IMG/VR virus record: IMGVR_UViG_3300043812_000021
Span: 70,099 to 96,693 of that record
Length of the DNA: 26,595 bases
Direction: 5' to 3' (one strand)
From: a virus
In this document: in pieces, positions 9,810-18,986 of the stretch
Layout of the letters: every line of letters starts with the position of its first letter
Numbering within the stretch: position 1 is the first letter of the stretch
The notes under the pieces: generated by a model
Told to the model about the DNA's origin: nothing
What the model saw: only the letters and a program-made list of their open reading frames with translations
Database searches by the model: none
Program-made: the position numbers and the translations under genes

Positions 9810-9891
9810 TATTATATTAATTTTCGAGTACCAGAGGGAATCCAGTAAAATGGGTTCCTTTTATATTATATTAATTTTCGAGTACCAGAGG
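9809..9891 (+). repeat. perfect 29-bp direct-repeat pair ATATTATATTAATTTTCGAGTACCAGAGG
   Basis: Copies at 9809-9837 and 9863-9891, with a terminator-like hairpin GGGAATCCA/TGGGTTCCT between them. Confidence 0.85.
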
Positions 9892-10082
9892 TTTTTTAAG
9901 AAAAAAGACAGATTAAAAAATGTGTTGTTTTACCTTGACTTCTATTGATTAGTGTGGTATTTATAAGCGTGTTAAATTTGTCCTATTTGCTATTATATGA
10001 AGAAAATAATCTAAAAAATTGTGTATCTGTTGAGTGAGTAGGGGTTATAGTTACCAAACCAGATAAAAATTAAAATTAGGGC

Positions 10083-10247
10083 TTGCATTTTATTAAAAGT
10101 ATGTTATTATAATAATGTAATAAGGAACAAGGATTATTTCAAGAGTTGAGCTTAAACTCTTAATTATTTAGAAAAAGGGTTGACAATAATAACTAACAAT
10201 GTTATTATTATAATGTAATAAGGAATTAAGAAAAGGAAGTTATAAAA
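10083..10247 (+). promoter_or_regulatory. tandem promoter cassette with stem-loop (copy 1)
   Basis: TTGCAT..TGnTATTAT; hairpin AAGAGTT-GAGCTTA-AACTCTT 10141-10161; TTGACA-17-TATTAT at 10180; RBS AAGGAAGT. Confidence 0.85.
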
Positions 10248-10644
10248 ATGACTAATGAAGAAATCATGAATGTTATTAATCAAATGGAATTAAAGAGTGC
10301 GCAAGTTGAAGCCTTAAGCGCTATTGACCTTGAAGATCGTGTTAATGATACAGTTAACGATTTATACAAGGGGGACTTTGATGGCTTTCATGGAAGAAGA
10401 TGAAACTGGACTTCGTGAGTGCTGGACTGAACTCGATGATTGGTATAATAACCATGACAATGATGAAACGCCTATTGCTTTATGGTTGTTTAACTGGATG
10501 GATGCAAGCGAGAAAGTATATTTTTTAGAAGATGTTAATTCTACAATCTTACATGACTACCTTGGTGTTGATGGTGTCAATCTATATTATCGTAATAATA
10601 TACTAGACTTAAGAGACAATTATATTACTAATATTTTAAGCTAA
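10248..10644 (+). pseudogene. acidic hypothetical early protein with apparent +1 frameshift (or sequence error)
   Basis: Cassette RBS+ATG 10248 (MTNEEIMNVINQ...DLYKGDFDGF) stops at 10401-10403; removing one base at ~10370-10389 joins it to MEEDETGLREC... of the 10324..10644 frame. Confidence 0.7.
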
Positions 10645-10661
10645 TTTTTTATAAAAAAGTA

Positions 10662-10788
10662 TTGACAATAATAACAGAACAATGTTATTATAATAATGTA
10701 ATAAGGAACAAGGATTTATTTCAAGAGTTAAGCTTAAACTCTTAAGTTATTCAGACTGTAATTTTAATAAGAAAAGGAAGTTATAAAA
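10662..10788 (+). promoter_or_regulatory. promoter + stem-loop + RBS cassette (copy 2)
   Basis: TTGACA-17-TATTAT; hairpin 10723-10743. Confidence 0.85.
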
Positions 10789-11229
10789 ATGACTGCATTT
10801 AATCAAAAAACTATTTCAACGTTAATTTTAGACAACCTAAACAAGTGCGAAGCGTTAGGTGATATTGAGGAAGAATTGACTTATGCCCACTGGTTTATTG
10901 ATAACGTTGATAAGGCTATCGAAGCCCTTAATGAATTTGAAAACTCGGATCAATTAAGGATTAAAACTTCTTTCAATGGTATTTTTGGCTCTATTCAATA
11001 CGCCCAAAACTACCTTAAAGAATTAGAGAACTCTAATTATGATTGTGACTCTTTAGATGAAGTAGACTTTGGGAATCCTTTAGAAGTTGCTTCTTATATA
11101 GCGCAAGCCAATTTTAGCTATATCTTTAATTTAATTAAAGATAATCTTAATATTGATGAGTGGGACTTACTAACACAAAAAGAGAAAACTAAAATCAAAA
11201 ATTATTTAAATGAATTAATCAGTCAATAA
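10789..11229 (+). CDS. acidic early protein, paralog of 17945..18373 (candidate Ocr-like DNA mimic)
   Basis: Cassette RBS; colinear similarity to 17945..18373. Confidence 0.8.
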   Translation: MTAFNQKTISTLILDNLNKCEALGDIEEELTYAHWFIDNVDKAIEALNEFENSDQLRIKTSFNGIFGSIQYAQNYLKELENSNYDCDSLDEVDFGNPLEVASYIAQANFSYIFNLIKDNLNIDEWDLLTQKEKTKIKNYLNELISQ

Positions 11230-11244
11230 TTTTAGCTTAATCTA

Positions 11245-11370
11245 TTGACAATAATAACCAACAATGTTATTATAATAATGTAATAAGGAACAAGGATTTA
11301 TTTCAAGAGTTAAGCTTAAACTCTTAATTATTCAAACTGTAAATTTAATAAGAAAAGGAAGTATATTAAA
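11245..11370 (+). promoter_or_regulatory. promoter + stem-loop + RBS cassette (copy 3)
   Basis: TTGACA-17-TATTAT; hairpin 11305-11325. Confidence 0.85.
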
Positions 11371-11592
11371 ATGGTTAATACTTTAGAAGTAGCAAACAAC
11401 AAAAAGAATATGAATACTGTTAAGTTTATGCAATACATAGAACCTCACATAGGATTTAGTAAAAACGGTGATAAGATTAATGTTGTAACTGATTATTATA
11501 GCAAGAGGGAACTTAAAAGCCTCTTTAATAGCTATCTTAAAAGGGACATTAATAAGTTAACAAACACTATAAAAGAACGTATTTTTAACTAA
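11371..11592 (+). CDS. hypothetical early protein
   Basis: Cassette RBS AAGGAAGT; stop abuts next promoter. Confidence 0.8.
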   Translation: MVNTLEVANNKKNMNTVKFMQYIEPHIGFSKNGDKINVVTDYYSKRELKSLFNSYLKRDINKLTNTIKERIFN

Positions 11593-11675
11593 TTTTTTAA
11601 CATTATCTATTGACAATAAGAACCAACAATGTTATTATTACAATGTAAGATAAATAAGAAAAGGAAGTTATAAAA

Positions 11676-12077
11676 ATGATTATTGAAACATATATGAACA
11701 ATTTGGAACTCAAAAAAGAATTATACAAGGACAATGAAAAAGTCTTAAAACAACTTGAATATTTAGAAAAAGCCTTTGACCTTGTTTCTGAAAGTAAATT
11801 TGATAAGGCTTTGGATGTTCTTACAAGTGGAAAAGCGGGGTCAAAAATTGCGATTGATGTTTTAAGTCAATACATCCAAAAATTTGAACTCAATAATTAT
11901 AATAAAATACAGTACAATGTACTCGGTATCCATGAAGTTAACGTTAACAATTTAGTCAATGAAAAATGGTGGAAAGTAGTAGAATTAGACAATACTAAAA
12001 AAGTTATTACTATTGCTAAGACTAGCAAAGAATTACAATATGATTTACTAAATTATCTATCAATATATTTTAAATAA
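11676..12077 (+). CDS. hypothetical early protein
   Basis: Own promoter at 11610 and RBS; first 10 aa identical to 13672..13983. Confidence 0.8.
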   Translation: MIIETYMNNLELKKELYKDNEKVLKQLEYLEKAFDLVSESKFDKALDVLTSGKAGSKIAIDVLSQYIQKFELNNYNKIQYNVLGIHEVNVNNLVNEKWWKVVELDNTKKVITIAKTSKELQYDLLNYLSIYFK

Positions 12078-12147
12078 TCTATTGACAATATAACAGAACA
12101 ATGTTATTATTACAATGTAAGATAAATAAGAAAAGGAAGTAATTAAA

Positions 12148-12441
12148 ATGGATAATGTGGAATTAACTAATAAAATTATGGAACTTGTAGATTTTGTTAT
12201 TGAAGGCGATGATATTACAATCGACCTTGATCTGTTAAATGTATATTATCAAGGCAATTGGCTTTTTGATTATGATAGTACGGATAAAAACGATGTACTA
12301 ATCTATACAACAAACGATAGCGGTTCCCGCAAGTTGTTAATTGACCGTAATAATCCTACTAATAAGGATTTGAAAAAAGTTAGTCAAGTGATTACAGATA
12401 GCCTTAACATGGTTGAAGCATTAATTGAAGGTAAACAGTAA
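12148..12441 (+). CDS. acidic hypothetical early protein
   Basis: Own promoter at 12082 and RBS. Confidence 0.8.
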   Translation: MDNVELTNKIMELVDFVIEGDDITIDLDLLNVYYQGNWLFDYDSTDKNDVLIYTTNDSGSRKLLIDRNNPTNKDLKKVSQVITDSLNMVEALIEGKQ

Positions 12442-12453
12442 GGGGGTATAATT

Positions 12454-12651
12454 ATGAATGAAAGGGACAACCGCCGTAATTATGTACATGATAAACAGAT
12501 TCCAGAATCTTATAAAAAGGCTAAAAAACTAATTGTTATTAGTTTACTGGTGCTTGTTACCCCTATTATTGTGTTATCTATGCTGGATCCCGCTAACTGG
12601 TGGATAATTATTTTCATAACAATTATGACCCCGCTTTGGTCAAGAAGATAA
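12454..12651 (+). CDS. small membrane protein
   Basis: RBS AAGGGGG; two hydrophobic segments. Confidence 0.7.
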   Translation: MNERDNRRNYVHDKQIPESYKKAKKLIVISLLVLVTPIIVLSMLDPANWWIIIFITIMTPLWSRR

Positions 12652-12668
12652 AAAGGGGTGATTAGATT

Positions 12669-13061
12669 GTGTTAACCTTAAAAGATTTTTTTAAAATCAA
12701 ACCCCAGTCTAAACAGTCTAAATCTATGTATAGCTTCTACCGTTCATATATGATTAATATGGACGACTATTCCAAACCAGATTCAGAGACTAGCTTAATT
12801 ACATTTAAAGCTTTAGATTATGAATTAAAGCAAGTAATTAAAATCGATACTATTAAAATCTATGCCCCTAACTTTTCCAGTTGTCTATTAGCTTGGCAAC
12901 CCCGTTATAAAAGAATGTTAACTATCTTCGATAATTATATATTTATTGATAATGTATTTATTGACTTGTTAACCAACCAACGGGAATATGGACATTCTTA
13001 TAATATGTATAATTCTTTGAAATTCTTAAAAGACAAGGATTTCAAAATTCCTAAAAAATAA
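12669..13061 (+). CDS. hypothetical early protein
   Basis: RBS AGGGGTG, GTG start. Confidence 0.7.
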   Translation: MLTLKDFFKIKPQSKQSKSMYSFYRSYMINMDDYSKPDSETSLITFKALDYELKQVIKIDTIKIYAPNFSSCLLAWQPRYKRMLTIFDNYIFIDNVFIDLLTNQREYGHSYNMYNSLKFLKDKDFKIPKK

Positions 13062-13074
13062 TTTGTAATAAGTA

Positions 13075-13241
13075 TTGACAATATAACAGAACAATGTTAT
13101 TATAATAATGTAATAAGGAACAAGGATTTATTTCAAGAGTTAAGCTGAAACTCTTAATTATTTAGAAAAAGGGTTGACAATAAGAAGTAACAATGTTATT
13201 ATAATAATGTAATAAGGAATTAAGAAAAGGAAGTAATAAAA
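13075..13241 (+). promoter_or_regulatory. tandem promoter cassette with stem-loop (copy 4)
   Basis: TTGACA at 13075 and 13174; hairpin 13135-13155 with loop variant AAGCTGA. Confidence 0.85.
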
Positions 13242-13595
13242 ATGAAAATCTACAAACTACCAGAGTATGGTGATTCCCGTTTTTACAAGCATTTTGTTTA
13301 TTCAAAGGCTAATGAATACGAAAATGCTAGTCTTTACTCCGTTACATATGAACACGTTTTGACTGATTGGGAAGGCAACGTCGAAGGGTCAAGTACTAAC
13401 CTTAATGAATTAGCTAATAAGCTAGAGTTAGGCTATTATCCAGAAGATACTTTGCAAGAAGAATATTTGCTTGTTAATGGTGAGAATGCTATTAAGGACT
13501 TGCTCAAAGATTACCCTTTGCCTATTCAACAAGAATTAGAGAATTATAAACAAACGCCTACGGGTATTTATTTCAAACCCTATTCAATTTTTTAA
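13242..13595 (+). CDS. hypothetical early protein
   Basis: Cassette RBS; 117 aa. Confidence 0.8.
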   Translation: MKIYKLPEYGDSRFYKHFVYSKANEYENASLYSVTYEHVLTDWEGNVEGSSTNLNELANKLELGYYPEDTLQEEYLLVNGENAIKDLLKDYPLPIQQELENYKQTPTGIYFKPYSIF

Positions 13596-13671
13596 CATTA
13601 TCTATTGACAATAAGAAGTAACAATGTTATTATTATAATGTAATAAGAAATAAGAAAAGGAAGTTATAAAA

Positions 13672-13983
13672 ATGATTATTGAAACATATATGAACAACCT
13701 TAATCAAGAGTGTGGAATTGCTGAAGATCTTGATTTTGATAATTTTGATAGTAATACCCGTTTGTTTGTTAATAATCAAAATCAAATCTATTTTGGAATG
13801 ATTGTTAACTATTTTGGTGATATTCAAGTAGTTAATCTAATGACTGGTGATTTTGGATTTTTTGACTCAGAAAACAACCAACTAGAAAAGGAGGGTCAAA
13901 TGAAAGTCACTTATTTTATGAAAGATTTAAACCGCTATTTATTGCAAGAGTTTGACTATGATAATATTATCGAACATATTTAA
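13672..13983 (+). CDS. acidic hypothetical early protein
   Basis: Own promoter at 13605 and RBS. Confidence 0.8.
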   Translation: MIIETYMNNLNQECGIAEDLDFDNFDSNTRLFVNNQNQIYFGMIVNYFGDIQVVNLMTGDFGFFDSENNQLEKEGQMKVTYFMKDLNRYLLQEFDYDNIIEHI

Positions 13984-14000
13984 TTTTTTAACATTATCTA

Positions 14001-14166
14001 TTGACAATATAACAAAACAATGTTATTATAATAATGTAATAAGGAACAAGGATTATTTCAAGAGTTAAGCTTAAACTCTTAATTATTTAGAAAAAGGGTT
14101 GACAATAATAACTAACAATGTTATTATAATAATGTAATAAGGAATTAAGAAAAGGAAGTTATAAAA
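14001..14166 (+). promoter_or_regulatory. tandem promoter cassette with stem-loop (copy 5)
   Basis: TTGACA at 14001 and 14099; hairpin 14060-14080. Confidence 0.85.
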
Positions 14167-14481
14167 ATGACTAATGTATACACTATGAAAGATTGGAATA
14201 ATGAAGCAACTGGTGAATTAAATCCAAAGTTATTTCAAGAAGTTGATCATGAAATCTATTCTGAAATGTATGAAGTTTTACCACCATTACCACTAGAAAA
14301 AGCAACGAAAAAAATTTTAGAAAATCAGTTAGGTATTAAGTTCATTCAAACATTTTGCATGGGTGAAGCTTATACAACGGATGATGACGACCCAGAAAGA
14401 TATTTATACCAATCATTTGGTAAAGCTGAAAATGGTAAATGTTATTATTTAGGCTTGCGCCGTTCAGAATATGATTATTAA
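14167..14481 (+). CDS. hypothetical early protein (weak resemblance to DUF1419)
   Basis: Cassette RBS; EVDHEIYSEMYEVLPPL...FCMGEAYT...GKCYYLG pattern; family call is from recall only. Confidence 0.75.
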   Translation: MTNVYTMKDWNNEATGELNPKLFQEVDHEIYSEMYEVLPPLPLEKATKKILENQLGIKFIQTFCMGEAYTTDDDDPERYLYQSFGKAENGKCYYLGLRRSEYDY

Positions 14482-14500
14482 TAAAAGGTAGGTAAATAAA

Positions 14501-14794
14501 ATGAATAATGTAATTAGATTTGAACTTGTAAAAGTTGACCCTCAAACTGAATTATCAATCGAACGGGGGGAGTATCGTATACGAAATGAATTTGGTGAAG
14601 TTGTTCCTGCTTGTAAATTAAGCATAGTTGTTAAAGATATGGCTAAGGCAAAAATTATCTTACAAGAACATGATACCATTATCAATGGCAAAGGATTTTA
14701 TGTTAGCGGTGAAAACAAACTAACTTTGGATTGCTTTAATAATAAACAAGTAGATAATTTACTTACTTATTATCAAGAAGTGTTTGGTTTATAA
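14501..14794 (+). CDS. hypothetical early protein
   Basis: RBS AGGTAGGT. Confidence 0.75.
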   Translation: MNNVIRFELVKVDPQTELSIERGEYRIRNEFGEVVPACKLSIVVKDMAKAKIILQEHDTIINGKGFYVSGENKLTLDCFNNKQVDNLLTYYQEVFGL

Positions 14795-14813
14795 AAAGGG
14801 GTGTGATTAAACT

Positions 14814-14996
14814 ATGGAGCCTATTATAATGCAGGGTCAAGATATGATCGATTTTCAAAACTCACAAGGCGATGATTGCTATTTTGACAAAGATTATCAA
14901 GTAGTTACTATCAATCCTAGATATAAGTATTTAGTAGGATTGGACGAAATCGAAAAGAATTCAATTATATACAAAGTAATTAAAGAAGGTGATTAA
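14814..14996 (+). CDS. small hypothetical early protein
   Basis: RBS AGGGGTG; followed by terminator. Confidence 0.7.
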   Translation: MEPIIMQGQDMIDFQNSQGDDCYFDKDYQVVTINPRYKYLVGLDEIEKNSIIYKVIKEGD

Positions 14997-15015
14997 TTTT
15001 ACCTTCTTTTTTTTT
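14983..15015 (+). terminator. intrinsic terminator
   Basis: AAGAAGGTGA/TTACCTTCTT stem + long T run. Confidence 0.8.
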
Positions 15016-15024
15016 GTCAAAGGG

Positions 15025-15203
15025 TATTAAGTTATTAAGTTATTCAGTTATTAAACTATACTCAGTTATTAAGTTATTCAGTTATTAAGTTATTCAGTTA
15101 TTGGGTTATTAAACTATTAAACTATTAAACTATTAAACTATTAAACTATTAAACTATTAAACTATTCAGTTATTAAGTTATTAAGTTATTAAACTATACT
15201 CAG
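15025..15203. repeat. tandem repeat, 22 units of ~8 bp (TATTAAGT/TATTCAGT/TATTAAAC/TATACTCAG)
   Basis: Read directly; includes seven consecutive TATTAAAC units at 15107-15162. Confidence 0.95.
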
Positions 15204-15416
15204 CCCTACCCTATTTAGCTATAAAAGTCAAATAATAGATTAAAAAAATGTTGCAAATACAACATAATTTCAGAAAGCCTAACTATATAAATTTATCTAG
15301 TAAAATCCTTGACTTCTTGCGATTATTATGGTATAGAATAATCTTAAAATTGTATCTTTACATAGTTAACAAAACATGATATAATATAATTAAAAGATAA
15401 GGAAGGAAGTATCACA

Positions 15417-15737
15417 ATGAAAAAAGGAATGCAACCAAAAAATTATATTGTTAGTACTATTGGCAATAAAGACAAAGTAAAAGTGAATTACTTTAAAGAT
15501 AGTAATAATTATTACATGGATCAAGACTATCGCAATTTAACAGTGGGTGATATTGCACTAGTAAAGGATAATGCACTCCACTACCTTGATAGTGTATATT
15601 ATAAGGAATTACACCGCCTTGACTCAATTCTGTTAAGTTATGATAAGGCGGAATATAAGGATTTAAGCAATAAACTAGCTAACGTTATCTTTGAATTAAA
15701 GCAAAAGCTAGTTGAAGAGTATAGACTCTTCCAGTAA
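15417..15737 (+). CDS. hypothetical early protein
   Basis: Promoter TTTACA-17-TATAAT (from 15357), RBS AAGGAAGGAAGT. Confidence 0.8.
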   Translation: MKKGMQPKNYIVSTIGNKDKVKVNYFKDSNNYYMDQDYRNLTVGDIALVKDNALHYLDSVYYKELHRLDSILLSYDKAEYKDLSNKLANVIFELKQKLVEEYRLFQ

Positions 15738-16060
15738 AAAGGTAAATAAATTAAACAATTCACAATCAAGGGTAAAAACTAAGAATGTTATTATATCAAC
15801 GTTCGTTAAGTCTCTACCCTTTTAGTTTTACATATAAAAGATAAAGACAATAAGGGTAATTAGTGATTATCTTCACTAATTAAAAACAACAAAAAAGCCC
15901 TATAAAAGCTAATAAAAGGCAAAAACAAGCCAAAAACGTATAAATAAATTAATAAAAATATTTTAACAGTTGATAAATTTTAGAGTTAAAAAAGCCCCGT
16001 AAAGACTGGTATAATAGCATTCTTAACAAGTGGATCGATCCAATTAATTCTATAAATGTG

Positions 16061-16089
16061 TTGACAATATGATTACATAATGATATAAT
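16061..16089 (+). promoter_or_regulatory. consensus sigma-A promoter without a convincing downstream gene
   Basis: TTGACA-17-TATAAT with extended TG. Confidence 0.75.
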
Positions 16090-16347
16090 ATAATTGAAAG
16101 ATAAGGAAAGGGAAGTGATTAATAGAAAACTAAACTTAATTAAACAACTGAATAAAATAGACTGTAACATTAAGAACAGAATATAGCTGGAGTTTATTAG
16201 GGCTATACGGTGGATGTATATGATTAGGGAAGAAGATACTTAATTTTTAAAAAGGTACGGATTACTCTAAACATATCTAGCTAACAACAACCAAAAATGG
16301 TTTCCCTTACCAGCTATCTGGGCGTTTGCTATTTACCTTTCAATATT

Positions 16348-16376
16348 ATAATAACATTAATAGGCTTCATTGTCAA
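16348..16376 (-). promoter_or_regulatory. minus-strand copy of the cassette-type promoter
   Basis: Reverse complement reads TTGACA-ATGAAGCCTATTAATGT-TATTAT (17-bp spacer). Confidence 0.7.
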
Positions 16377-16592
16377 TACTTATTTATAAAAAATCAACTT
16401 GATTATCTTATAGCCCTATTTCTTTATATAACCGTGTTTAATTCATTTTTAGGCTTTAATGGTAGATTATACCTAAACAGTGCTAAAACGCCTCAGAATA
16501 GCTTACATGGAAAATTAGTGCTATTCTAGTTATTGTTTATCTAGTAGGTGCTATAATTGCTAAAATCAATCAATAAAAATTAAAATTAGGGC

Positions 16593-16750
16593 TTGCATTA
16601 TGTTAAAAGTATGCTATTATAAAAGTGTAATAAGAAACAAGGATTTATTTCAAGAGTTAAGCTTAAACTCTTAATTATTTAGAAAACCTATTGACAAACT
16701 TAACTAACAATGTTATTATTATAATGTAATAAAGAAAGGAAGTTATAAAA
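16593..16750 (+). promoter_or_regulatory. tandem promoter cassette with stem-loop (copy 6)
   Basis: TTGCAT at 16593 (upstream ATAAAAATTAAAATTAGGGC shared with copy 1), hairpin 16652-16672, TTGACA at 16691. Confidence 0.85.
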
Positions 16751-17005
16751 ATGACTAATGATATTAAAAATGTTCTGAATGATTTAGCTAACAAGGTAAG
16801 GGAAGCAACTAATGCTAGTATCAGTTTACAGACTGTACATGATAATGCTAACATTTTTCCACAAAATCTAATTGTTAACGATAGTTGGCAATTGCTTACA
16901 CCAAAGGAGCAGGAACAGTTACAAGCCAATGGAATCACTAATAATTTAGTTATCAAACTAATTAATAGAATTAATAGAATTGAAGAATTTAACAAACTAA
17001 AATAA
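16751..17005 (+). CDS. hypothetical early protein
   Basis: Cassette RBS. Confidence 0.8.
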   Translation: MTNDIKNVLNDLANKVREATNASISLQTVHDNANIFPQNLIVNDSWQLLTPKEQEQLQANGITNNLVIKLINRINRIEEFNKLK

Positions 17006-17092
17006 TCAGACCAGATAAAAATTTAAATAAACTATTGACAATAACAACAATCAATGTTATTATAATAATGTAACAAGGAAGGAAGTAATAAA

Positions 17093-17368
17093 ATGAATTG
17101 GAATGATTTGATTATTGAGAAAAGTTGCGGAATTGTCACGGAGAAAAATATTGATAATTTTAATGTGGCTTTTTGGTACGCAATTAATAACGAACATGAT
17201 TCAGATACCCCCAAAGGAGAACTTTGTAAATTTACCATTGATATGTGGGGAATGAAACTTATGGGACACTATGTCGCAGATTGGATTGGCGATGATGAAT
17301 ACCCTAATGAAACAGAGCCTTGTGAAATTGAACTTGACCATTTAGCAATTATAAAACTTAAGAAGTAA
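17093..17368 (+). CDS. acidic hypothetical early protein
   Basis: Own promoter at 17035 and RBS. Confidence 0.8.
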   Translation: MNWNDLIIEKSCGIVTEKNIDNFNVAFWYAINNEHDSDTPKGELCKFTIDMWGMKLMGHYVADWIGDDEYPNETEPCEIELDHLAIIKLKK

Positions 17369-17460
17369 ATGAAATAAAATTTAAATAAACTATTGACAAT
17401 AATAACTAGCAATGTTATTATAATAATGTAATAAGGAATTAAGAAAAGGAAGTAATCAAA

Positions 17461-17769
17461 ATGGAAAAGTTAACAGACAATGTAAAAACTGAATTAGTTA
17501 GTCTTATTGAAACAACTTATGGTGAAGCAATCCTTACCTTGAAACGAGGTGAAGAAGAAAAAGAAATTGTCATTGCTAACACTGGTTTATCTGAAGTAGT
17601 GTATGAATCCGCTATTGATTATTATATGTATGACTTAAATTGGACTCAAGAACAATTTGATCATTATTGGGAAAACGGGGGCGAAGATAAGGAAATCGAT
17701 AATTACATTGAGGGGACTGTTGATTATTACGATGATGAGTCTACGTGGGAAGAATTACAACAAAATTAA
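17461..17769 (+). CDS. highly acidic early protein (candidate DNA mimic)
   Basis: Own promoter at 17393; hand count ~27 D/E vs 6 K/R in 102 aa. Confidence 0.8.
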   Translation: MEKLTDNVKTELVSLIETTYGEAILTLKRGEEEKEIVIANTGLSEVVYESAIDYYMYDLNWTQEQFDHYWENGGEDKEIDNYIEGTVDYYDDESTWEELQQN

Positions 17770-17778
17770 ATAAACCTA

Positions 17779-17944
17779 TTGACAATTATAACATTCAATG
17801 TTATTATTATAATGTAATAAAGAACAAGGATTATTTCAAGAATTAAGCTTAAATTCTTAATTATTTAGAAAAAACTATTGACAATAATAACTAACAATGT
17901 TATTATTATAATGTAAGATAAATAAGGAAAAGGAAGTAATCAAA
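17779..17944 (+). promoter_or_regulatory. tandem promoter cassette with stem-loop (copy 7, compensatory variant)
   Basis: TTGACA at 17779 and 17878; hairpin AAGAATT-AAGCTTA-AATTCTT 17838-17858. Confidence 0.85.
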
Positions 17945-18373
17945 ATGGGTGAAGAATTTAATTACAACACTATGTTATCAACTATTGCGGATGAATTGGA
18001 AAACGGAAGCAATTCACTTGAAGATATTCAAATGAATACTACTAGCAACGATTTATGGATTATTGGAACATATAAGGCTTCACAAGCATTAGAAGAGTTT
18101 AGTGAAGAAGATCAGCTTTATGCAAGCACTACTTTAAACGGTGTCTTTGGTGCTATTGAATACGTCAAGAATTATGAAACTGAACAATTTGGATTAGTTA
18201 ATACGGATTTAACCGACCCCGAAAAGGTTGCTAATATGGTTGCATATATTAACATAGAATGCGTGTTAAATGATTTAAGTGATGAGTTTGATATTGATAT
18301 TGAAGAAGACTTAACCGACCAGCAAGCAGATAGCATTGTGAACTACATTAATAACCAATTAGGATTTGAATAA
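17945..18373 (+). CDS. highly acidic early protein (candidate Ocr-like DNA mimic)
   Basis: Hand count ~31 D/E vs 3 K, 0 R in 142 aa; paralog of 10789..11229. Confidence 0.8.
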   Translation: MGEEFNYNTMLSTIADELENGSNSLEDIQMNTTSNDLWIIGTYKASQALEEFSEEDQLYASTTLNGVFGAIEYVKNYETEQFGLVNTDLTDPEKVANMVAYINIECVLNDLSDEFDIDIEEDLTDQQADSIVNYINNQLGFE

Positions 18374-18377
18374 TATT

Positions 18378-18407
18378 AAAGGGCTTTTCATAAGTCCTTT
18401 TTATTTT
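18378..18407 (+). terminator. intrinsic terminator
   Basis: AAAGGGCTT/AAGTCCTTT stem + T tract. Confidence 0.75.
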
Positions 18408-18728
18408 GCTTCTTTTATTATCCTTATCTATACAGGGGATGTTTTGTTGCAAATGCAACATTATTATTATTATTATTATTCTAGTTCATCCCCTTTGTCC
18501 TTGCTTATTTAACTCAATCTATTATTATTTTAGTCTGTTGGCTTGTCTGTGCTTGTTTTATTGCTTTAATGGTAAATTATACCTAACTACCCTAAAACGC
18601 CTCAGAAAGCCTTATATAAAGAATTAAGGCTATATAATAATTAAGCTATTATTTTATGATTATGTATTGACAATATAAAATGCTTATTGTATTATAATGG
18701 TGTAAGATAAAGAAAAGGAAGTATTATC

Positions 18729-18948: not shown

Positions 18949-18986
18949 CTCCTTTGGTACTTTTTACCGAAGGGGCTTTTTTATTT
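18949..18986 (+). terminator. intrinsic terminator
   Basis: CTCCTTTGGTA/TACCGAAGGGG stem + T tract. Confidence 0.8.

Follow-up and report, generated by a model that had tools for sequence, protein, structure and literature searches.

What is the role of a short stem-loop sequence that occurs seven times in one phage genome, each time directly behind an early promoter? The question is raised by the final 26.6 kb of the 96.7-kb IMG/VR phage record IMGVR_UViG_3300043812_000021 (estimated completeness 74%), a stretch of 26,595 nucleotides referred to here as the window. An early-type module spans approximately 10.0-18.9 kb of the window and contains about 20 co-directional sigma-A-type promoters (TTGACA-17 nt-TATTAT with an extended TG), each of which leads into a strong ribosome site and a small gene. 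These cassette promoters are confined to the early module and are found nowhere else in the record. Seven promoters of the module are followed by a repeated unit of about 60 nt that contains a small hairpin. An initial annotation of the window offered three readings of this unit: an abundant small RNA, for example a decoy; a leader that processes or stabilises mRNA; or a dyad operator for the shut-off of early genes. Here, we describe a computational analysis of the unit in the window and in related phages. The unit is best explained as the transcribed leader of one subclass of interchangeable early promoter cassettes, in which the selected feature is the small hairpin.

Near-identical DNA to the window was not found among 50,697 phage records, and the matches returned by a distant search were restricted to the generic part of the promoter, in early regions of Herelleviridae. 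The host is probably a member of the Lactobacillaceae, an assignment drawn from distant protein matches to Lactobacillus phages, whose homologues are 34-38% identical to the phage exonuclease. A search for relatives of the LPXTG protein of the phage, as a clue to the host, gave none. The early-module proteins have no family matches, and no candidate partner protein for the hairpin was found among them.

Results

A hairpin unit follows seven early promoters

A pattern of two complementary 7-nt arms separated by a 7-nt loop matches the plus strand of the window seven times, against 0.31 matches expected by chance, and none of 100 shuffled sequences gave seven matches. The hairpins start at 10141, 10723, 11305, 13135, 14060, 16652 and 17838, as the initial annotation had reported, and the rest of the 96.7-kb record contains no further copies of the unit. 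The unit begins right after the -10 box with a purine-rich tract, in which AAGGA occurs once or twice. An A/U-rich linker leads from there to the stem, which has 7 bp and is capped by a 7-nt loop, and a T-rich tail completes the unit at its 3' side. Every copy directly follows a promoter, either of the TTGACA-17-TATTAT type with the extended TG or, at copies 1 and 6, of a CTTGCA variant. The two AAGGA motifs originally ascribed to the unit are present in five of the seven copies, whereas copies 6 and 7 have one.

Five copies (1, 4, 5, 6 and 7) have a tandem form, in which a second promoter starts 98, 99, 98, 99 and 99 bp, respectively, after the first and no open reading frame (ORF) lies between the two; the description of five gene-less promoter pairs was thus accurate. 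All modules are on the plus strand. Module 1 (10082-10208) comprises a CTTGCA-type first promoter at 10082-10110, the unit at 10111-10173 and the second promoter at 10180-10208, ahead of the gene at 10248; its hairpin (10141-10161, -5.6 kcal/mol) has the 7-bp stem and a 7-nt loop with G at the first position. In module 4 (13075-13202), the corresponding elements lie at 13075-13103, 13104-13167 and 13174-13202, the gene starts at 13242, and the hairpin (13135-13155, -4.6 kcal/mol) carries a G at the sixth loop position. Module 5 (14001-14127; promoters 14001-14029 and 14099-14127, unit 14030-14092, hairpin 14060-14080) precedes the gene at 14167, and module 6 (16592-16719; CTTGCA-type first promoter 16592-16620, unit 16621-16684, hairpin 16652-16672, second promoter 16691-16719) precedes the gene at 16751. 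The last, module 7 (17779-17906), has its promoters at 17779-17807 and 17878-17906, its unit at 17808-17870 and its gene at 17945; in its hairpin (17838-17858, -2.3 kcal/mol) the fifth stem pair is A-U instead of G-C, a compensatory change. The base differences in the loops of copies 1 and 4 and the exchanged pair of copy 7 had been recognised in the initial annotation.

The remaining two copies have a leader form, which lacks the second promoter, so that the unit is the 5' untranslated region (UTR) of the genes at 10789 and 11371. Module 2 (10662-10788) has its promoter at 10662-10691, its unit at 10692-10756 and its hairpin at 10723-10743, and module 3 (11245-11370) has these elements at 11245-11273, 11274-11337 and 11305-11325; in both, a ribosome site and the gene follow. 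Aligned with each other, the two forms differ only in about 41 bp, the core of the second promoter, which the leader form lacks.

Base-pairing of the hairpin is maintained in related phages

Pattern scans of IMG/VR and of metagenome contigs recovered seven further records belonging to one phage clade, which together with the window make eight. Two of the related records are complete, at 143 and 153 kb, and the same kind of module is present in all relatives; a search with an early protein for more distant relatives returned the same close clade only. The unit is kept in all eight records, at two to seven copies in the stretch analysed from each, and 26 copies, 24 of them distinct, were aligned. 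All seven stem pairs are standard in 26 of 26 copies (100% of cells), and double-sided, compensatory changes occur at three stem pairs. The A-U for G-C exchange at the fifth pair of window copy 7 recurs in two copies of the related record OBLI01000024, and both tandem copies of a second relative (G002) combine G-C for A-U at the fourth pair with A-U for G-C at the fifth. Two more relatives (G003 and G005) carry a hairpin of largely different sequence at the same distance behind a CTTGCA-type promoter, with the 99-bp promoter spacing kept. This variant hairpin (L025 7790-7853 and L027 3280-3343; -8.8 kcal/mol) has an unrelated loop and lacks the T-rich tail. Where one side of a pair alone had changed, the outcome was G.U, with three independent events (at pairs 1, 3 and 6), and A.C did not occur.

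None of 500 shuffles attained the covariation score or the degree of pairing of the real alignment, and pairing fell to 52-58% when the partners were slid by one column. RNAalifold recovers the same helix unaided. Furthermore, a covariance model built from the 26 copies and run over 393 kb, comprising the phage's own record and the two complete relatives, matched only copies behind early promoters, with scores of 91.5, 85.2, 89.4, 91.2, 91.8, 92.1 and 79.6 bits for modules 1 to 7; one weak extra match, at 29.5 bits, reflects promoter and short-leader likeness only. The proposal that pairing is selected had been made from copy 7, with covariation in homologues set beforehand as its test. Covariation was found, and the relatives add two further kinds of compensatory change, the three G.U events and no mismatch.

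Sequence conservation points the same way. When copies are compared within the same cassettes, the hairpin is 90-92% identical, against 60% for the 12-nt promoter spacer, and recent duplication of entire cassettes is therefore not enough to account for the conservation. In 24 copies the loop retains the core AGCU unchanged, against a covarying stem. We consider it probable that an RNA hairpin is under selection at this position. Paired changes of the two arms could, against this, arise by templated quasi-palindrome mutation without selection; the complete lack of unpaired cells, together with the high conservation, argues against pure drift.

Pairing is favoured in the transcript rather than in a DNA dyad

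An inverted repeat between two promoters could equally be read in DNA. A dyad operator for a dimeric regulator, positioned at about +35 of the first and about -64 of the second promoter and serving early shut-off or activation, would suit a 21-bp near-palindrome with a palindromic centre, and most copies do sit between two promoters. One relative (G001), moreover, has lost the rest of the unit but keeps the 3' arm and tail upstream of a promoter. Different complementary arm pairs, however, coexist within one genome, six copies with one pair and one with another in the window, two and two in G002, and two and one in OBLI01000024, and G003 and G005 additionally hold the variant hairpin of different sequence. 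A dimeric-protein operator is disfavoured because the arms differ among sites in one genome yet stay mutually complementary, which half-site reading by a single protein would not enforce. On the transcribed-sense strand, every single-sided change makes a G.T pair and none an A.C pair; the leader-form copies have no second promoter to regulate, and the inner and outer symmetry centres lie half a base pair apart. We thus regard the operator as very unlikely; the two to three different complementary arm pairs found within single genomes do not fit a dimeric repressor that reads the same half-site at all its sites.

The pattern of changes favours base-pairing in plus-strand RNA, the sense strand of early transcripts, as the level at which the hairpin would act, and not a repressor dyad. 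The bias of single-sided changes towards G.U points to the same strand; with three events only, it is suggestive and not proof.

The unit belongs to the promoter cassette and not to the gene

Genes matched between phages of the clade by their N-terminal peptides can differ in what precedes them: a short leader in one phage, a unit leader or a tandem promoter pair in another. The unit therefore belongs to the promoter cassette, independent of the downstream gene, and any function it has should be generic to transcripts from that class of promoter. Ordinary 5' UTRs account for two of seven copies in the window and seven of 26 across the clade. The relic in G001 (L024 3618-3660) consists of the 3' arm and T-rich tail, located between a stop codon and the next promoter, and lacks both the first promoter and the 5' arm.

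Such mobility raises the possibility that the unit has no function of its own and is a leader relic spread by cassette recombination, its complementarity being maintained by templated mutation and gene conversion. The shuffling of cassettes, by which one gene has the short, leader or tandem form in different phages, fits this explanation, as do the half-unit relic and the derivation of the leader form by loss of the second-promoter core. Neutral spread does not account well for a hairpin that is so much better conserved than the promoter spacer of the same cassettes (0.90-0.92 against 0.60), for the lack of a single unpaired cell among 24 distinct copies, for the maintenance of a different-sequence hairpin at the same place, or for retention of the unit in all eight records, and we judge it improbable.

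The cassette promoters themselves show a further symmetry. At promoters 10180, 11245, 14099, 17393 and 17878, the first 8 nt of the spacer are the exact reverse complement of the extended -10 region, so that many cassette promoters are themselves inverted repeats; this left arm is not conserved in other cassettes.

The hairpin is weaker than the terminators of the phage and matches no Rfam family

The isolated hairpin has a predicted energy of -2.3 to -5.7 kcal/mol and two G-C pairs. A terminator scan called four terminator-like hairpins, at 9833-9862, 14982-15009, 18378-18400 and 18949-18975, with energies of -8.9 to -14.9 kcal/mol; the scan did not call the unit hairpin, and no terminator-grade hairpin follows the unit. 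The candidate role of intrinsic terminator was rejected on these grounds. When folded as a whole, the five tandem-form leaders have energies of -4.4 to -6.4 kcal/mol with z-scores of about 0, no better than shuffled sequences. The tail that starts 2 nt after the stem has five T in eight positions in tandem copies, four in leader-form copies and two in the variant.

Several other known kinds of element were considered and set aside. An RNase III site of the SP82, SPO1 or T7 type needs a stem of about two helical turns, in many cases interrupted by an internal loop; the stem here has just 7-8 bp, and folding 63-96 nt of context revealed no consistent helix of greater length (z-scores of about 0). 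Rfam gave no match at gathering score, and at E values up to 5 it returned two chance-level matches only, neither of them on a hairpin. As a mimic of CRISPR repeats or other host sequence the hairpin also fails at the stringency applied, its 19 specified bases occurring in two unrelated contigs of 185,579 prokaryote species genomes and never as an array. A CsrA sponge was rejected since the phage encodes no CsrA and the two GGA motifs are just 7 nt apart; the second purine motif resembles the CsrA SELEX consensus, and Lactobacillaceae mostly lack CsrA. Antisense action in trans on early ribosome sites is not supported by duplex energies, which are no better than those of shuffled units (29% of shuffles equal them). 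A mini-ORF of 11 codons that ends at the conserved TAG of the tail would use a non-canonical ATT start, its peptide is altered by the compensatory changes, and the variant is full of stops. By eye, there is no likeness to the TnpB guide-RNA insert elsewhere in the genome, nor to boxA or boxB of a lambda-type nut site: a partial match of the 3' arm to boxA covaries away, and the early proteins have no family match.

The initial annotation argued that a segment of about 55 nt is the only unique product of the first promoter. This is not supported, in view of the missing terminator-grade hairpin and the copies that are ordinary 5' UTRs. Gene-less tandem early promoters are a classical phage layout: A1, A2 and A3 of T7, all strong promoters for the host polymerase, follow one another at intervals of about 100 bp without an intervening gene and read into the same early genes. 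The phage studied here differs from T7 in having five such pairs in its genome, each of which encloses a conserved hairpin. A dedicated multicopy small RNA would nevertheless be produced if transcripts of the first promoter end near the hairpin, by weak termination, by a roadblock at the occupied second promoter or by processing, giving an abundant RNA of about 55-60 nt with a function in trans, such as that of a decoy for a host RNA-binding or defence protein. In favour of such an RNA, the unit is served by five to seven strong promoters per genome, is independent of the downstream gene, keeps a copy number of two to seven in the stretches of eight records, and has the five T in eight from 2 nt after the stem. 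Phage-made RNA decoys are known, for example Racrs (PMC10651486). With the solitary repeat units of Racrs it has in common that a phage genome carries several copies of a short hairpin RNA, each with a promoter of its own; unlike them, it mimics no CRISPR repeat or other sequence in the species genomes and lacks its own terminator. Termination at the hairpin in the leader-form copies would silence their own genes, and the low stability of the hairpin relative to the terminators of the phage, the lack of CsrA, the absence of special complementarity to early ribosome sites and the lack of an Rfam match all weigh against such an RNA, which we hold to be improbable; the decoy of the initial annotation is possible and unsupported. 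We give little credence to the fuller proposition that the promoter-unit modules are dedicated genes for an abundant early RNA of about 55-60 nt, whose 3' end would form at the weak hairpin and T tract or through collision at the occupied second promoter, and whose purine tract and hairpin would act in trans on the host, for instance by soaking up 30S subunits or an RNA-binding defence or regulatory protein. A discrete short RNA would be the by-product or the purpose of a pause or stability mechanism.

On balance, we favour a cis-acting leader over a dedicated small-RNA gene, and of the three original options the mRNA leader is closest to the evidence.

A candidate pause or attenuation site in the early leader

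In Firmicutes, NusG-dependent pausing involves a TTNTTT motif at -11 to -6 and is aided by a pause hairpin 11-12 nt upstream of the transcript's 3' end; about one fifth of NusG pauses lie in 5' leaders, and NusG together with NusA lets weak hairpins with bottom A-U or G-U pairs terminate (PMC12288461, PMC11602163, PMC8060035). The unit may be an element of this kind. TTNTTT, in which N varies between A and G, starts 2 nt after the stem in 17 of 26 copies, against a background rate of 0.4% per position. With the transcription start predicted from the position of the -10 box, about 7 nt downstream of it, the hairpin would form in plus-strand early RNA at about +27 to +47 and would be fully clear of the RNA exit channel when polymerase reaches about +58 to +62. 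At that point the non-template strand in the bubble would read TTNTTT, and polymerase would pause on the T-rich stretch, at a position that immediately precedes the second promoter or lies about 30 nt ahead of the ribosome site. The gene would still be reached by most transcripts, and the share that terminates would yield an RNA of about 55-60 nt; the factors involved would be NusG and NusA of the presumed Lactobacillaceae-type host. Pause hairpins act via their shape, with which the covarying stem, the variable loop and the alternative hairpin would be consistent.

Tentatively, we propose that the hairpin stabilises a polymerase pause or serves as a weak attenuation site. Several observations weigh against this proposal. 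Intact TTNTTT is present in 15 of 17 tandem copies, two of seven leader-form copies and neither of the two variant copies, and in the tandem copies the same stretch serves the second promoter as its upstream A/T-rich region, a role that could by itself explain why it is conserved. The predicted spacing from hairpin to pause is 13 nt (12 with an extra U-A pair), not 11-12, on the assumption that the motif occupies -11 to -6. If only structure matters, the near-identical sequence of stem and loop needs gene conversion or a further constraint, and the retention of AGCU in the loop while the stem covaries hints at sequence-specific recognition. Our confidence in the mechanism is limited because the motif is mostly tandem, the variant lacks it and the spacing is 1-2 nt long. 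Compared with NusG-dependent pause sites and NusA/NusG-assisted weak terminators, such as the trp leader of Bacillus subtilis and riboswitch leaders, the unit is alike in its small structure-only hairpin and, in the 17 copies that have it, TTNTTT at a fixed short distance. As a candidate pause site it differs from those of Firmicutes in its longer predicted spacing, in the degeneracy of the motif in most leader-form copies, and in being multicopy, moving with promoter cassettes and often lying directly upstream of a second promoter.

The next best explanation is a leader that governs mRNA stability or processing, in which the purine tract binds 30S and blocks RNase J1, or the hairpin positions an RNase Y-type cut in the adjacent A/U-rich stretch, giving defined, long-lived early mRNAs. 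In Bacilli, entire transcripts are stabilised when the 5' end is occluded or when a Shine-Dalgarno (SD) sequence is present that has no start codon (PMC3997798), and the polypurine stabiliser of phage SP82 (Hue et al. 1995) is listed among the references of that paper. In the unit, the predicted transcript has AAGGA at about +8 and about +15, and in most copies neither ATG, GTG nor TTG is placed where it could serve as a start codon; the AAGGA core is about as strong as the phage's own ribosome sites (AAAGGA). It shares with STAB-SD and polypurine 5' stabilisers, as in cryIIIA and SP82 early RNA, the SD-like purine tract near the 5' end and the missing start codon; it departs from them in having just a 5-nt core and a selected downstream hairpin, which the stabilisers lack. 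The first AAGGA, moreover, is not conserved (copies 6, 7 and G002), the hairpin, which begins about 26 nt into the predicted transcript, is not 5'-terminal and lacks the strength to halt an exonuclease, and genes with a short leader manage without the unit. We consider this explanation rather unlikely overall.

Phage SP82 early RNA is also a known substrate of Bs-RNase III (PMC4838370, PMC1935012), a precedent for processing whose cleavage sites were described by Panganiban and Whiteley 1983 and by Mitra and Bechhofer 1994, as cited in PMC4838370. In the host-takeover leaders of SPO1, the interval from promoter to ribosome site contains hairpins, together with a structured element present in multiple copies. 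The intergenic regions of the SPO1 host-takeover module (L082 5723-5888, 7114-7211, 11777-11851, 12194-12272, 12381-12526 and 12698-12793) share a G+C-rich structured element of about 55 nt, which probably corresponds to the RNase III sites described for SP82, and many early promoters there are followed by a small hairpin and then a ribosome site. In the SPO1/SP82 leaders, as here, multicopy conserved stem-loops of a large Firmicute phage separate strong early sigma-A promoters from the ribosome sites of small genes of the host-takeover type. The sequences are not similar; the SPO1/SP82 elements are G+C-rich and long with internal loops, as RNase III substrates, whereas the window has a 7-bp A/U-rich hairpin that is no RNase III substrate.

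Finally, the hairpin could be bound by a phage or host protein that reads the loop and modifies polymerase or the transcript, as a nut/boxB site or a translational operator would. The lambda nut site (boxA-boxB) and HK022 put combine a linear tract and small hairpin just downstream of early promoters and act on nascent RNA, an arrangement that the short conserved tract and hairpin of the unit recall, and the invariant AGCU core amid a covarying stem would suit a protein that reads the loop. The variant of G003 and G005, however, has an unrelated loop, no boxA or boxB likeness is evident, and no candidate protein emerged among the early proteins, all of which are orphans. The unit also differs from nut and put in lacking an identified N-like protein, in occurring at two to seven copies per record stretch and not two, and in having few terminators inside the module to read through; put, moreover, needs two stem-loops. 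A protein-binding hairpin is accordingly a doubtful reading, and one to which we assign a low probability.

Other features of the early module

The first early gene (10248-10644) is divided between two frames by one additional base (C at about 10389); three relatives have it intact, at 131 amino acids, and the difference reflects a frameshift or else an error of assembly. About 22 tandem 8-bp units (repeat family D4) occupy 15025-15203, midway through the module and directly after the terminator-like hairpin at 14982-15009. At 16061-16376, a promoter of perfect consensus (12/12, with the TG) faces the sole minus-strand cassette promoter at a distance of about 290 bp, with very short ORFs only in between, an arrangement conserved in relatives. 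Two non-coding segments of 31 and 42 nt (families D10 and D12) are repeated about 2.1 kb apart, at 16446-16524 and 18556-18633, with 79-87% identity.

Discussion

The hairpin unit is a previously undescribed RNA motif that is supported by covariation. It lies in the early region, of the host-takeover type, of large Lactobacillus-type phages that form an uncultured clade. Structured leaders that act in cis on early phage transcripts are a known kind of element, and the unit is most likely one of them; by sequence or size, it falls outside every named family that could be tested here. For annotation, the unit carries a caution: a gene-less promoter alone, without 3'-end data, is no ground for calling a small-RNA gene. 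Were a trans-acting early RNA nevertheless made from these modules, it would represent a new class of multicopy phage decoy RNA.

In this clade, early promoter cassettes come in two classes, one that includes a structured leader and one that lacks it, and the two are swapped between genes. If the hairpin does act by pausing or attenuation, it would be a compact, portable element that tunes transcription from strong promoters in Gram-positive hosts, and the phage would exploit the NusG/NusA pause machinery of its host at the very start of infection.

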